Shown here: piece by piece, positions 488 through 6,545 of the stretch
Position numbering within the stretch: the first letter of the stretch is position 1
How the letters are laid out: each line of letters starts with the position of its first letter
Made by a program: the position numbers and the translations under genes
From: a virus
Lineage: Duplodnaviria > Heunggongvirae > Uroviricota > Caudoviricetes
Length of the DNA: 11,676 nucleotides
Virus record (IMG/VR): IMGVR_UViG_2740892258_000014
Strand: one strand, 5' to 3'
Notes under the pieces: generated by a model
Database searches by the model: none
What the model was told of the DNA's origin: nothing
Seen by the model: the letters and a program-made list of their open reading frames with translations, nothing else

Positions 488-1864
488 TCATACGTCCGCC
501 CCTTGTGCATATCGTCTGCCACGCGCAGCAGGCGCATTTGATGCTGTGCAAATCTGTCTGGCTTCATCCTGGTCACATGCAACAAAGTGTCCGTTGCAGA
601 ACCGCTGGTAAACCGTACCAAGTGAGCCAAAACGGTTTTTCGTCACAATGATTTCAGCAAATGGCGCGGCGCTACTGTTCTCGTCATATACCGCTTCCCG
701 ATAGAGCATGATGATTGAGTCTGCGTCCTGTTCAATGCTTCCTGAATCACGCAAATCTGCGTTTGTCGGGCGTTTGTTTGGTCGCTTCTCAACATCGCGT
801 GAAAGCTGACTTAGGGAGATAACAGGCGTTTTCAGGTCTTTCGCCATCGCCTTAAGGCTTCCTGAGATGTGGGCAATTGCGAGGTCGTTGCGATCTGCTT
901 TCGGCTTCTCAATCAGGCCAAGATAATCCGCCATGATGAGTGACAGGTTTGGATTTTCCTGTTTGTGTCGTTCTGCGATTGAGCGTATTTCTTCGACCGA
1001 TAACCGCGAGGCATCGACTACCCATACATCCAAATCTGCAAGCTGACTCATGCCGTTAGCAACACGCGCCCAGCCTTCGTCATCCATCGATGCAGGATTT
1101 CGCAGTACGCTAACCGACATCCTCCCGGCGTTGGCAATGCTTCGCTCTGCAATCTGCAATGCGCTCATTTCCATTGAGAAAATCAATACCCCGCGCCGGA
1201 CGTCAGAACCAGGAATAACGCGGCTTGCAACGCCTTCGGCAATCTTCAGCGCCAGCTCGGTTTTCCCCATACCAGGACGAGCAGCGATTATCACCAGGTC
1301 TTCTGCGTTCATCCCTCCGGTGATGGCATCAAGTTCTTCGATTCCGGTCTTCAGGGTATCGGACTCTTCTCCGTTCCTCAGACGCCTGTCAAGCGTGTCA
1401 GTGTAGTCAGTAATGATTTCCCCTAACCGTACAGGTTTAACCTCGTCACGGGGCTTTCTGATGGCTGAAAGACGCTTTACAAGCTCATCCATCGCCTGAC
1501 TCGATGCGTCGATGGTTCCGCTCTGAATTGGTTCACGCATTTCATCCATGATTTCCAGCACCAGATGGCGGTGATAGTTATCCGCGACCATTCCGGCATA
1601 TCCCTTCAGGTTTGCGGCACTCGGGCAGTTTTTGCTGGTCATCAGGATTGCGGTGAAATGCTCCTCTCCGCACGCCTCGGCAACCATCAGCGCGTCGATT
1701 AGGTTTCTGTTTCTCGCCTGCTTGCGAATAACCTCGAAGGCTTTCCGGTAGAGCGGAATTGAAAACGCTTCCGGCTCCAGCGTTGCAAGAACGTCACTGG
1801 CGGTTGGAGTTAATCCACCAATCAGCAGGCCACCGATAACGCTCGCTTCGATATCCTGTCTCAT
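488..1864 (-). CDS. Replicative DNA helicase, DnaB family (P22 gene 12-type phage helicase)
   Basis: 458-aa ORF; Walker A motif ARPGMGKTE, DnaB-like C-terminal RecA-fold motifs ([25 protein letters not shown]). Start ATG overlaps the stop of the upstream initiator gene (ATGA at 1861-1864), implying translational coupling. Confidence 0.88.
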
Positions 1865-2808
1865 GCAATCCCCCTGTCTGCAAACTTCCCTTCCCGAACT
1901 CCCGTTAACGAGTCTTCTCTCAGCAGGTAATCAAAATCAGCCGTCCAGCCCGTGTCGTTGTCTCCGAAGTAAAACGGCTTGGCCTGATGCACAAACGCCC
2001 TGACATACGCTCTGAAACCGTCCACGTTTGGCGTTTTCAGTTGCGGGATGATTTTCTTCAGGCGGCGTTTTCGTTTCTCGTTGACCGCAACAGCGTGTGG
2101 CAGTCTGTCACCGACTTCGGTGTTGTAGGCGTTCAGGAAGGATTCGTAGTCGATTCGTTCTGCCTTGCGACGTTCAGGTTTAACCTGCCCATCGCCTCCC
2201 CCATTGGGGGGTAGGGGGGTATTATTTATATTCTTGTTAATACCTTCTTGTTCATGATGTGCGGTTGTTTGTGCGGCTTCATGTGCGCTTTCATGTGCGG
2301 CATGTACGCTGAAAGCCGCGCTATTGCTGGCTTCATCATGTGCGGCATCATGTGCGGTTGTTTGTGCGGCTTCATGTGCGGGTAAATTGTCCATTTTTTG
2401 AGCATATTCATGGTAATTTGTGATGGTTATCACACGGCCTTTTTGCTTCTCTCCATCAATGGAGATCATCCCCTCTTTCACAAAAACCTGAAGCATCCGC
2501 TCAACCTGATCACGGCTTGCTGGCTTGCCATGTCTGTCGCATAACTGAAGACCTAAATCAGCTGCTGTCACAACCAGTTGACCGGGTTGCAGATGCCATT
2601 CATGACCTTTGAAATTCGCTTTGTATGGCTTTCTGGCGGCATTCAGGAGAAGGTTTTCCCACAGGGTGCGAAGATAAACATCTTTCGCCCATGACTGTTT
2701 CAGAATGCTCCGGTACAACGGAATGTAACCAGTTTTCTGGTTCTCCATCCTGTTGCTCCTGCGCTCGTGTGCGGCGCTGAAATCGTAGATTTTTGCTGTA
2801 TTGCTCAT
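1861..2808 (-). CDS. Phage replication initiation protein (lambda O-like) with a His/Ala-rich low-complexity linker encoded by the origin iterons
   Basis: 315-aa ORF starting [10 protein letters not shown] (compare lambda O MTNTAKILNF as I recall it); sits directly upstream of the helicase gene; contains the iteron array at 2254-2382 in its central linker, as in lambda O/ori. Confidence 0.8.
2221..2382. repeat. Putative phage origin of replication: iteron array plus adjacent AT-rich segment, embedded in the initiator gene
   Basis: TGTGCGG-core repeats begin at 2258, 2270, 2282 (variant TGTGCGC), 2294 and again at 2339, 2351, 2363, 2375, i.e. two clusters of four with an exact 12-bp period; 30-bp block TGTGCGGTTGTTTGTGCGGCTTCATGTGCG occurs twice (2259-2288, 2352-2381); AT-rich 2221-2250 flanks it. 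Confidence 0.7.
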
Positions 2809-2810
2809 AA

Positions 2811-3083
2811 CTACCTGCCTTGACGAAAGACCTTAAGAACATCGTTAAACTGACTTACGGATATGTCTTCTTTGAGAAGCTTTTCCAGAAATGCGTTTGG
2901 AATGAACGTATATCCCTCCTCTTTTGGTAGAGACGGGAGCAACGCCCTCGCCTCAGCCTTCAGAAGCTCAGTTCTGGCAACTTTCACAAAAGAGATTTGA
3001 GTTCTTTCATCAATGGAACGAAGGAAGCGCAAACGCTTAGCTTCTTTTTGTGTATCAGGTGGATTAAAGCCTTTGTTTCGCAT
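2811..3083 (-). CDS. Hypothetical 90-aa protein encoded between cII and the replication initiator gene
   Basis: In-frame ATG at 3083 inside track ORF 2811..3356 (MRNKGFNPPDTQKEAKRLRF...), GAGGT SD 7 nt upstream; stop TAG at 2811-2813 lies 2 nt from the initiator ATG (2808). The upstream part of the track ORF overlaps cII in another frame and is discounted. Confidence 0.5.
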   Translation of the reverse strand: MRNKGFNPPDTQKEAKRLRFLRSIDERTQISFVKVARTELLKAEARALLPSLPKEEGYTFIPNAFLEKLLKEDISVSQFNDVLKVFRQGR

Positions 3084-3092
3084 ATAATTACC

Positions 3093-3160
3093 TCGTTGGA
3101 TGTTGTTAAAATTCCATTTGTATTTGATCAGAACGCTCGGTTGCCGCCGGGCGTTTTTTA
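3093..3160 (+). ncRNA. oop: OOP-like antisense RNA overlapping the 3' end of cII (approximate ends)
   Basis: Plus strand 3128-3160 (CAGAACGCTCGGTTGCCGCCGGGCGTTTTTTATT) matches my recollection of the 3' end and terminator of lambda OOP RNA; perfect TATAAT at 3083-3088 upstream could be pO. Stem CGCTCGG/CCGGGCG followed by a T-run. Confidence 0.5.
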
Positions 3161-3399
3161 TTGGTGAGAATCGAAGCAACTTGTCGTGCCAATCGAGCCA
3201 TGTCGTCGTCGACAACACCCCATTCAAGAACAGCAAGCAGCATTGAGAACTTTGGAATCCAGTCCCTCTTCCACCTGCTGATCTGCGACTTATCAACGCC
3301 CACAGCTTCCGCTGTCTTCTCAGTTCCAAGCATTGCGATTTTGTTAAGCAACGCACTCTCGATTCTTAGAGCCTCGTTGCGTTTGTTTGCACGAACCAT
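3106..3399 (-). CDS. cII: Transcriptional activator CII (lysogeny establishment)
   Basis: From ATG at 3399 the product MVRANKRNEALRIESALLNKIAMLGTEKTAEAVGVDKSQISRWKRDWIPKFSMLLAVLEWGVVDDDMARLARQVASILTNKKRPAATERSDQIQMEF is near-identical to lambda CII as I recall it (97 aa). The track ORF extends 29 codons further upstream, but that extension has no support. Confidence 0.9.
   Translation of the reverse strand: MVRANKRNEALRIESALLNKIAMLGTEKTAEAVGVDKSQISRWKRDWIPKFSMLLAVLEWGVVDDDMARLARQVASILTNKKRPAATERSDQIQMEF
3377..3390 (+). promoter_or_regulatory. CII-binding direct repeat TTGC-N6-TTGC (pRE -35 region), oriented toward cI
   Basis: TTGCGTTTGTTTGC at 3377-3390, just inside the 5' end of cII on the opposite strand, the same arrangement as lambda pRE. 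Confidence 0.65.
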
Positions 3400-3457
3400 A
3401 TGTAAGTATTTCCTTAACAAATAAGAAGTTATGCGCATCAACTTATGCGCGTTGTAT

Positions 3458-3500
3458 TCCCGCATTTCGGCGGGAATGAGGACCATGACTGTTAAAGAGC
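3458..3500 (-). promoter_or_regulatory. nutR: boxA (GCTCTTTAA) plus boxB hairpin (TCCCGC-CGAAAT-GCGGGA) in the pR transcript
   Basis: Minus-strand reading gives GCTCTTTAAC (plus 3492-3500) then, 16 nt later, hairpin TCCCGCCGAAATGCGGGA (plus 3458-3475); located 8 nt after the cro stop. The same boxA and boxB recur upstream of N (nutL). Confidence 0.75.
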
Positions 3501-3507
3501 AATTTGC

Positions 3508-3693
3508 TTATGCCGCTTTGCGGTAAGCGCTTTCTTGATACTTCAGGGCGCCAGCTGTAACGACTTCCAGTCGATAGGCGTCTTTCTCTGGGATGACTTC
3601 CTTCCACTGAGAGACTGCTGCGTCGCTAATGCCTAACGCTTTAGCTACAGCACGCTGGGTTCCGAAGTGGTCGATAACATCTTTCTTGTACAT
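3508..3693 (-). CDS. cro: Cro-type small repressor, divergent from cI
   Basis: 61-aa ORF with helix-turn-helix segment (QRAVAKALGISDAAVSQW); divergent from cI across an 80-bp operator region; followed by nutR and cII. Not lambda Cro in sequence, so a different immunity type. Confidence 0.75.
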   Translation of the reverse strand: MYKKDVIDHFGTQRAVAKALGISDAAVSQWKEVIPEKDAYRLEVVTAGALKYQESAYRKAA

Positions 3694-3773: not shown

Positions 3774-4424
3774 ATGAAAACTCAATTGATGGGAGAGCGC
3801 ATTCGCGCTCGGAGAAAAGAACTCAAGATCAGGCAGGCCGCACTTGGAAAGATGGTCGGCGTGTCTAATGTTGCCATATCTCAGTGGGAACGCTCTGAGA
3901 CAGAGCCAAATGGAGAGAATCTTCTCGCCCTGGCTAATGCGTTGAAGTGTTCCCCTGACTATCTGATGAAAGGAGAGGAAAGTCTTTCAAACATTGCCTA
4001 TCACAGTAGGCATGATCCAAGAGGGTCATACCCTCTGATTAGCTGGGTGAGCGCAGGATGCTGGATGGAAGCTGTAGAACCATATCATAAGCGTGCAATA
4101 GATAACTGGTACGATACAACCGTAGACTGTTCAGAAGATTCGTTTTGGTTGGACGTGAAGGGAGACTCAATGACGGCTCCGGCCGGTCTCAGTATCCCTG
4201 AAGGAATGATAATACTCGTCGATCCTGAAGTAGAGCCGCGTAACGGGAAACTGGTAGTTGCAAAGCTCGAAGGAGAAAACGAGGCAACTTTCAAGAAGTT
4301 AGTTATTGATGCAGGCAGGAAGTTTCTAAAACCACTTAACCCACAATATCCGATGATCGAGATCAACGGAAACTGCAAAATCATCGGCGTAGTTGTCGAT
4401 GCAAAACTAGCAAACCTTCCATAA
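3774..4424 (+). CDS. cI: CI-type prophage repressor: N-terminal HTH (XRE) and C-terminal LexA-like S24 autopeptidase domain
   Basis: 216 aa; HTH region IRQAALGKMVGVSNVAISQWE; candidate Ala-Gly cleavage site in VSAGCW; Ser nucleophile in GDSM and downstream Lys (FKKL) typical of the S24 Ser-Lys dyad. Confidence 0.85.
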   Translation: MKTQLMGERIRARRKELKIRQAALGKMVGVSNVAISQWERSETEPNGENLLALANALKCSPDYLMKGEESLSNIAYHSRHDPRGSYPLISWVSAGCWMEAVEPYHKRAIDNWYDTTVDCSEDSFWLDVKGDSMTAPAGLSIPEGMIILVDPEVEPRNGKLVVAKLEGENEATFKKLVIDAGRKFLKPLNPQYPMIEINGNCKIIGVVVDAKLANLP

Positions 4425-6194: not shown

Positions 6195-6545
6195 ATGAGT
6201 GAAGTAACAGATTTAGTTGTTATTGAAAAAGCAAATGCAATGACTGTATTTCAGTCTGCCGACCAGATTGAAGAAATTCTCCAAAAGGTTGAACGTGAAG
6301 TTATGTCATTTGTGCCTGATATCACAACGGCAAAGGGCAGAAAGGAGATCGCTTCTCTGGCGTATAAAGTTGCGCAGACGAAAACATATCTCGATGGTCT
6401 TGGCAAAGACCTTGTTGCTGAACTGAAGGAAATTCCAAAGCTAATTGATGCCAACCGCAAGACAGTGCGCGATCGCCTTGATGAACTGAAAGCCAAGGCG
6501 CGCCAGCCTCTTACTGATTATGAGGAAGAATCAGGCGCGGATTAA
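6195..6545 (+). CDS. Hypothetical protein (116 aa), upstream partner of the E/R/K-rich ORF
   Basis: Preferred start ATG 6195 with GGAGG SD 5 nt upstream (the track ORF starts at 6099 but that stretch contains a hairpin plus T8 run at 6155-6182). 3' end overlaps the next ORF by 26 nt in a different frame. Confidence 0.55.
   Translation: MSEVTDLVVIEKANAMTVFQSADQIEEILQKVEREVMSFVPDITTAKGRKEIASLAYKVAQTKTYLDGLGKDLVAELKEIPKLIDANRKTVRDRLDELKAKARQPLTDYEEESGAD

Follow-up and report, generated by a model that had tools for sequence, protein, structure and literature searches.

A conserved 90-codon gene between cII and the replication initiator of a P22-like lambdoid prophage, with a start codon overlapping the candidate pO promoter

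The DNA stretch of 11,676 nucleotides (nt) analysed here at its full length (the window; IMG/VR virus record IMGVR_UViG_2740892258_000014) is, judged from sequence comparison, the immunity and replication region of a P22-like (Lederbergvirus) lambdoid prophage and is about 99.9 % identical to the P22-like coliphage CUS-3 over the 771 bases compared. Between its lambda-type cII gene and the gene for an O-type replication initiator lies an open reading frame (ORF) of 90 codons, here termed orf90 (Table 1). A prediction made earlier from the letters of the window (the original prediction) had described a complete ORF of 90 amino acids (aa) that is extra relative to lambda. This description holds: homology with lambda runs at about 97 % through cII, ends at the cII stop codon and is back at the O start, where it picks up again with ATGA(G/C)(C/A)AATACAGCAAAAAT. 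The end of cII lies upstream of orf90 at a distance of 22 nt. At its other end, the orf90 stop codon TAG (2811–2813, minus strand) is followed after 2 nt by the O start codon ATG (2806–2808). The ATG of orf90 is the complement of 3081–3083 and has one base (3083) in common with a plus-strand TATAAT. Both contacts had been described in the original prediction, and every coordinate given for them proved correct.

Diverged copies of orf90 are present in Salmonella, Scandinavium, Pseudescherichia and metagenomic prophages, with 66–79 % DNA identity to the window and to one another. Codon-level conservation, on which the original prediction had made the standing of the ORF depend, is strong among these copies. 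The ratio of nonsynonymous to synonymous substitution rates (dN/dS) is 0.04–0.18 in the 17 diverged pairs with an estimable dS (in three further pairs, synonymous sites were too saturated for the dS correction), third codon positions hold most of the differences (e.g., 15/13/51 by codon position), and the orf90 frame is the only one without stops in all six diverged copies. The ratio of the proportions of nonsynonymous and synonymous differences (pN/pS) is 0.23 overall and, uncorrected, 0.15–0.21 in codons 31–90. By these signatures, orf90 is a genuine phage gene under purifying selection. Synonymous divergence is lower in codons 1–30 (2994–3083, minus strand), with a pS of 0.49 versus 0.69–0.78 in the rest of the gene, and a conserved nucleotide island at 3019–3048 contains the palindrome AGCG(T/C)..(A)CGCT. 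The low synonymous divergence at the 5' end may reflect an extra constraint on DNA or RNA upstream of pO, or the protein motif KRxR. This palindrome also scored as a weak terminator-like hairpin within orf90 (3025–3038, plus strand), which matches the conserved KRxR codons (CGT..CGC) and was discarded, the protein motif being the simpler explanation. Some prophage copies (P0021–P0026, P0030) show a frameshift after about residue 50, or unrelated sequence after about residues 30–52; recombination joints and decay thus do occur within orf90 in some lineages.

The orf90 product matches PHROG 2519 with an expectation value (E) of 4.1e-56, residues 1–90 aligning to positions 1–90 of the 90-position profile. 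No difference from orf90 is apparent; PHROG 2519 is its own family and has no assigned function. The earlier statement that the family is unrecognised is thus not fully accurate, since the family is already catalogued and its members are annotated as hypothetical protein. The phages JEP4, Kapi1, Gally, HF4s and TL-2011a carry the gene under this label, as do 279 of 5426 complete Escherichia coli genomes (~5 %); UTI89-type and enteropathogenic E. coli prophages and many Shiga toxin 2a (Stx2a) phages are included. CUS-3 and the LC6160xx Stx2a phage records lack an annotation of the gene; in the CUS-3 GenBank record (CP000711), cII is annotated as an extended ORF of 126 aa and orf90 is omitted. 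The ORF finder likewise returned a cII ORF of 126 aa in the window (3106–3486, minus strand), which was rejected as an over-extension, as alignment to lambda places the cII start at 3399 and yields 97 aa. When 1.84 billion representative proteins were searched exhaustively with a profile, only 15 relatives of 62–93 aa were retrieved, and no full-length initiator, so orf90 cannot be just the N-terminal part of some longer known protein. Family members with identities down to 41 % all stop a few residues past the same last helix. Searches of NCBIfam and of PDB sequences with orf90 gave no match.

The gene order cII – orfX – O – helicase or P is found in every locus examined; in the remote homologues (51 % and 41 % identity) it reads cII – orfX – ENQK-type O – DnaB. 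Two unrelated cII types, one lambda-like and one 933W-like, stand in front of near-identical orf90 copies of E. coli, and the mosaic joint lies at the oop/tO segment. The gene downstream is constant in type: near-identical orf90 copies always precede an O with the ENQK-type N-domain, which starts with MENQKQGHF.LFRSLLSK in Salmonella and relatives. As helicase partner, any of three DnaB types or a lambda-P type may follow. Overall, orf90 is present in 57 of the 69 phage records with the ENQK clade of O and in none of the other phage records, and the pairing spans E. coli, Salmonella, Scandinavium and Pseudescherichia.

The stop/start junction between orf90 and O has a mean pairwise identity of 0.9 in the six diverged copies. 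It has the form TAG-nn-ATG in seven loci, while stop and start overlap as ATGA or ATGGCTAG in the remote homologues, and the final orf90 codons CAA GGC AGG supply a Shine-Dalgarno (SD)-like AGG for O. The adjacent or overlapping position of stop and start suggests that translation of O is coupled to that of orf90. A fusion of the two products by -1 frameshifting was also considered and rejected: upstream of the junction, the O frame of the window stays open for no more than 8 codons, and no conserved slippery site was found.

Table 1 Features of the cII–O region and neighbouring genes in the window
Feature	Position	Strand	Description	Basis
orf90	2811–3083	-	90 aa, MRNKGFNPPDTQ...VFRQGR	ORF call; PHROG 2519; dN/dS
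orf90 stop / O start junction	2806–2823	-	CAAGGCAGG TAG TT ATG	conserved in diverged copies
Conserved core motif of orf90	2820–2924	-	codons 54–88, G[YF]xxIPNxF..L.K.D.S..QFN..L..F	resembles lambda-type O residues 25–59
SD site of orf90	3091–3094	-	GAGG, 7 nt before orf90 ATG	read from sequence
Candidate pO (OOP) -10	3083–3088	+	TATAAT	conservation and position equivalent to lambda pO -10
Best candidate pO -35	3060–3065	+	TGGATT, 17-nt spacer	read from sequence; 3/6 consensus matches
Predicted OOP-like antisense RNA	~3095–3163	+	~68 nt, 5' end inferred	terminator scan; fold
tO intrinsic terminator	3130–3157	+	12-bp stem, then T run; ~40–70 nt downstream of TATAAT	terminator scan
O-type initiator	1861–2808	-	315 aa, 'ENQK' clade	Pfam Phage_rep_O E 3e-15; PHROG 345
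DnaB-type replicative helicase	488–1864	-	overlaps O stop	Pfam DnaB_C E 1e-77 and DnaB N-terminal domain
cII	3106–3399	-	97 aa, lambda-type	~97 % DNA identity to lambda cII; Pfam Phage_CII E 1e-47
cro	3508–3693	-		
cI repressor	3774–4424	+		

The orf90 protein is basic (isoelectric point ~10), with the net charge located in a long helix. An AlphaFold2 (AF2) model from an 18-sequence alignment reached a predicted local distance difference test (pLDDT) score of 84 (61 with a 12-sequence alignment) and comprises the long helix (residues 10–51), a beta pair (54–59) and two short helices (63–71 and 76–86). The C-terminal part following the long helix coincides with the conserved core motif and resembles the N-terminal domain of lambda-type O. 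Against the Pfam family PF04492 (Phage_rep_O), orf90 matched profile positions 6–39 of 95 with E 0.048; other family members, five of the eight proteins scanned, matched in the same register (E 0.0024–0.16). BLASTP aligned orf90 to lambda O aa 26–59 with E 4e-4 as a single pair. Conversely, a hidden Markov model (HMM) of the orf90 family scores lambda-type O N-termini at 12–16 bits (HMM positions 54–88 corresponding to O residues 25–59); the maximum of the null was 6.8 bits, and none of 3120 composition-matched shuffles attained 12–16 bits. A tblastn search with the C-terminal 42 aa against phages (E <=10) found no initiator with a closer match.

The likeness to the lambda-type O domain comprises the pattern GYxxhxNxhLE...DLSxxQFxVLhxhxR, in constant register over the first ~35 positions, and the predicted strand-helix-helix of orf90, which fits O residues 25–59. 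In contrast to lambda-type O, orf90 lacks the remaining ~60 domain positions including the DNA-recognition helices, the iteron-containing middle, the C-terminal domain for interaction with helicase or P and an N-terminal degron of the TNTAKI type, and it has an unrelated, basic N-terminal helix of 50 residues. We conclude that a lambda-type O gene is probably the source of the C-terminal third of orf90, which would correspond to the N-terminal strand-helix-helix of O, cut before the DNA-recognition helices.

At the 5' end of orf90, the plus-strand sequence CGCATATAATT, representing the SD-AATTAT-ATG block, shows no change among six copies whose remaining sequence differs by about 30 %. GAGGT-AATTAT-ATG is kept in all orf90 copies, and the TATAAT -10 is kept in the remote homologues too. 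The hexamer occurs once in the window, versus 4.4 occurrences expected and at least one in 199 of 200 shuffles; a lone TATAAT in 11.7 kb is, as such counts go, not unusual, and its significance comes from the comparison with other phages. The string TATAAT-TACCTCG-T(T)GGATG of the window is equivalent to the lambda junction, whose sequence on the reverse complement of the O start is TTGAGT-17 nt-CATAAT-7 nt-GTTGATAG... The element GTTGATAG of lambda is the known 5' end of the OOP RNA. The complement of the O ATG forms part of the lambda pO -10 (CATAAT), and the -35 falls in O codons 7–9. The original identification of the TATAAT as candidate pO agrees with this comparison, as the hexamer occupies the position of the lambda pO -10 upstream of a conserved tO, and a candidate pO at this site is well supported by position and conservation. 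A generic promoter scan placed the site below threshold because its best -35 has only 3/6 consensus matches. A second copy of pO was sought at the O start; the respective CATAAC (2806–2811) is CATCGC in other copies and hence no promoter.

The lambda arrangement had originally been described as a cII–O spacer holding the OOP promoter, which is not the case: the lambda spacer holds the OOP 5' end, with the pO -10 lying over the O ATG and the -35 inside O. In agreement, pO has been located at the 5' end of the lambda O gene, with the pO- mutation in the -10 being 2 bp from the first O codon, and inactivation of lambda pO slightly increased O protein and pR read-through (PMC3985674). Since the lambda pO -10 overlaps the O ATG in the same way, the overlap of start codon and promoter is, on this comparison, an ancestral junction inherited by whichever gene stands first after cII. 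The view that the orf90 start would be specially exposed to interference from the OOP promoter is consequently rejected by analogy with lambda O, which has the same arrangement.

An OOP-like antisense RNA predicted downstream of the candidate pO would be complementary to the cII 3' end and the cII–orf90 spacer. Its predicted fold (-21 kcal/mol, z -2.6) consists of a 5' stem-loop and the terminator. In the 3' part, from ~3120 to the end of the tO hairpin, the sequence is almost the same as in lambda; the 5' part diverges. In lambda, OOP has a 52-nt overlap with cII and ends at tO (PMC5869508). Across 10 phages, the tO stem preserves all 11 consensus pairs (11/11), two of which have undergone compensatory double changes; the locus L098 has a different hairpin at the tO position. 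Taken together, the window and lambda share a short spacer with the OOP 5' end, a pO -10 over the start codon of the next gene and a near-identical tO hairpin within the cII 3' end. They differ in the gene starting in the -10 (O in lambda, orf90 in the window), in the -10 itself (CATAAT in lambda, a perfect TATAAT in the window), in the -35, which is formed from orf90 codons in the window and is weaker than that of lambda, and in the predicted OOP-like RNA, which is ~10 nt shorter in the window.

Comparison of the junction across lambdoid phages, as proposed in the original prediction, revealed a conserved start junction in front of whichever gene follows cII. It precedes lambda O (GGAGTCATTATG), epsilon34 gp49 of 53 aa (GAGGTAATTATG), a DUF2740 ORF of 47 aa (GGAGTTAATTATACATG) and an unannotated 47-aa ORF of phi24B (GAGGTAATTATATG), as well as the remote orf90 homologues at the loci L098 and L099. 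The phi24B ORF (MRKTQENKRVNHRKDVLRDQFYQ...; HM208303, locus L093, 1590–1733) lies right after cII, within a 162-nt gap before the annotated O. The cII–O slot is commonly filled in P22-like phages; Yersinia and Klebsiella phages that share the O clade of the window have a KilAC antirepressor and a transcriptional regulator at this position. Accordingly, the original designation of orf90 as inserted oversimplifies, given a slot that is commonly occupied and a stable link to one initiator clade. Members of DUF2740 (PF10872; 47–48 aa, between cII/c1 and the replication gene in P22-like phages) and epsilon34 gp49 occupy the same slot as orf90 and resemble it in the SD-AATTAT(A)-ATG start in or beside the pO -10, in a stop that overlaps the O start, and in a colinear N-terminal motif HK..(K/L)R.R(Y/F)L.S at residues 12–22. 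They differ in having about half the length of orf90, in lacking the O-like C-terminal motif and in being paired each with a different O type. The 43-position model of PF10872 was not matched in hmmscan by orf90 at E <=0.1 or by five other family members at E <=10, and hhalign of the orf90 family with DUF2740 aligned residues 8–26 over 19 columns (P 0.003, probability 10 %). Homology with DUF2740 was not accepted on such a 19-column sub-threshold match, which we treat as a lead and not as a claim.

On balance we lean towards reading orf90 as an early gene of the pR operon that encodes a small protein with an accessory or modulating role in the replication module of a group of enterobacterial lambdoid and P22-like phages, and not an initiator itself. 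Transcription from pR would reach orf90 after cII, and orf90 would be translated from its own GAGG site. Ribosomes ending orf90 would re-initiate at the adjacent O ATG, both proteins thus being made together. The product, in which a basic helix of 40 residues would precede the O-derived C-terminal third, would most likely be an accessory or modulating subunit that works together with the ENQK-type initiator or the origin. Convergent transcription from pO and the OOP RNA would act on orf90 as they do on O and cII in lambda, so that pR read-through might be dampened somewhat and cII placed under antisense control. A more specific proposal, which we regard as unlikely, is that orf90 represents a domesticated fragment of an ancestral lambda-type O, namely its N-terminal strand-helix-helix, fused to a basic helix and now serving the ENQK initiator as a stoichiometric, co-translated partner or regulator. 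Such a fragment might influence how the initiator oligomerises at the iterons, its turnover by ClpXP, or the way co-resident lambdoid replicons are distinguished from one another, and would, if real, constitute a third, previously unrecognised protein of the lambdoid replication module.

Several observations speak against the accessory-protein reading or the evidence assembled for it. Klebsiella, Yersinia and Enterobacter phages carry the same O clade without orf90 and with other genes in the slot, so orf90 cannot be essential to the ENQK initiator. Coupling of orf90 and O is inferred from junction geometry only. The match to PF04492 amounts to 14.6 bits and stays under the gathering score of 28.7, and hhalign against O, although in the same register (E 0.021), returned a probability of just 2 %; because the threshold is missed and most of the domain is absent, orf90 is not a member of the O family. 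The adjoining ENQK-type O does not score with the orf90-family HMM, the motif resembling lambda-type O instead, and an evolutionary relic therefore fits better than mimicry of the present partner. Structural neighbours of the orf90 model included none pointing to an activity, and the literature searched yielded no experimental work on the orf90 protein. As for the promoter, the putative pO -35 is weak and not conserved, TGGATT varying between copies.

A possible, if rather doubtful, alternative sees orf90 as a 'moron'-like accessory gene that fills a variable slot, acting outside phage replication (e.g., in host takeover, exclusion or counter-defence) and linked to O by shared ancestry. Such a role would agree with the unrelated genes that the slot holds elsewhere (KilAC antirepressor, transcriptional regulator, DUF2740, epsilon34 gp49), with a family that is tiny and taxonomically narrow (15 matches in 1.84 billion representatives), with the dispensability of orf90 for the ENQK clade of O, and with domain, NCBIfam, PDB and structure searches that found no functional domain in orf90. 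It accounts poorly for the tight or overlapping stop/start with O, kept down to 41 % identity, for the exclusive association with one O clade across four genera while cII and the helicase partner vary, and for the O-derived motif; unlike classic morons, orf90 also has no promoter or terminator of its own. Alternatively, orf90 could matter mainly in cis, by bringing ribosomes to the O start and keeping the mRNA open over the pO/oop junction, with the peptide being secondary. The junction and the last codons (SD-like AAGGCAGG) are indeed among the most conserved nucleotides of the region, and unrelated short ORFs begin at the same conserved junction in other phages, those of DUF2740 (L095) and epsilon34 gp49 overlapping the O start and that of phi24B ending 5 nt past the annotated O start. 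We nevertheless judge a role in cis very unlikely, since the amino acids of codons 31–90 are strongly conserved (pN/pS 0.15–0.21) with synonymous sites near saturation, which a ribosome shuttle would not need, the AF2 model is folded with confidence, and in lambda, translation of O begins straight at the same junction, no leader ORF being present.

Scarcely credible is the remaining option, according to which orf90 would be a non-functional scar, i.e. the 5' stub of a lambda-type O displaced in a swap of replication modules. The C-terminal motif, which is like lambda-type O residues 25–59 and ends before the DNA-binding helices, would suit such an origin, as would the location of orf90 exactly at a mosaic boundary with conserved linker sequences on either side and the frameshifted or recombined variants in some prophages (P0021–P0026, P0030). 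A relic would, however, lose what orf90 retains: an intact frame of 86–93 codons with a dN/dS of ~0.1 across lineages whose synonymous sites are saturated, and the same locus down to 41 % identity. A pseudogene was ruled out on the grounds of dN/dS and the single open frame.

Lambdoid replication modules are usually described as consisting of two genes, one for the initiator and one for the helicase or helicase loader. A conserved, co-translated and clade-specific small protein would add a component to this picture. That the gene is catalogued (PHROG 2519) and that its slot holds small ORFs in P22-like phages is already known; new are the evidence for selection on orf90, its exclusive link to one initiator clade, the conserved coupling geometry and the O-derived motif. 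The gene belongs among the small cII–O ORFs that are probably coupled to the initiator. Should orf90 modulate replication, it could affect the yield of prophage induction and hence Shiga toxin gene dosage. The overlap of promoter and start codon is itself of little weight, as it is ancestral.

The initiator downstream of orf90 has an N-terminal leader (2749–2808, minus strand) with 0.8–0.9 nucleotide identity across O types that diverge afterwards; the lambda O N-terminus MTNTAKILNFGR is a homologue of this leader. In the literature, the lambda O N-terminus serves as the ClpX degron of lambda O (PMC12723719). A second in-frame Met (MENQK, 2746–2748) is preceded by a strong AGGAG-N7 site; the O start has been placed at this Met in the JEP4 annotation and in gene calls on other contigs, and at the locus L099 the Met is replaced by Leu. 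An iteron-like array within O (2251–2393, both strands) consists of ~8 units of 12 nt, (T/C)TTCATGTGCGG, in two clusters. It encodes a repetitive HEAAQTTAH segment, and an AT-rich stretch (~2215–2245) adjoins it. The array and the AT-rich stretch are probably the replication origin, as in lambda.

The putative pO lies ~700–830 bp from the iterons, versus ~350–430 bp in lambda, and is ~275 bp further from the O gene and iterons than in lambda. In lambda plasmids, replication was reported to be abolished or strongly reduced by insertions of 6–500 bp between pO and ori (PMC3985674 Table 1). Given the longer spacing in the window, the spacing rule would be specific to lambda, or pO would not have such a role here. 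The displacement of pO by ~275 bp from the origin relative to lambda would allow the 'dual promoter' model of replication control to be tested on a natural case.

Outside the cII–O region, an Rfam scan of the window found no family. The ORF list contains two further features of the early-left region: an ORF of 214 aa (6520–7164, plus strand) that is very rich in E, A, K and R and coiled-coil-like, and an ORF (8319–8702, plus strand) whose end, ...PEYDDSIPF, looks like the acidic tail of an SSB-type protein.

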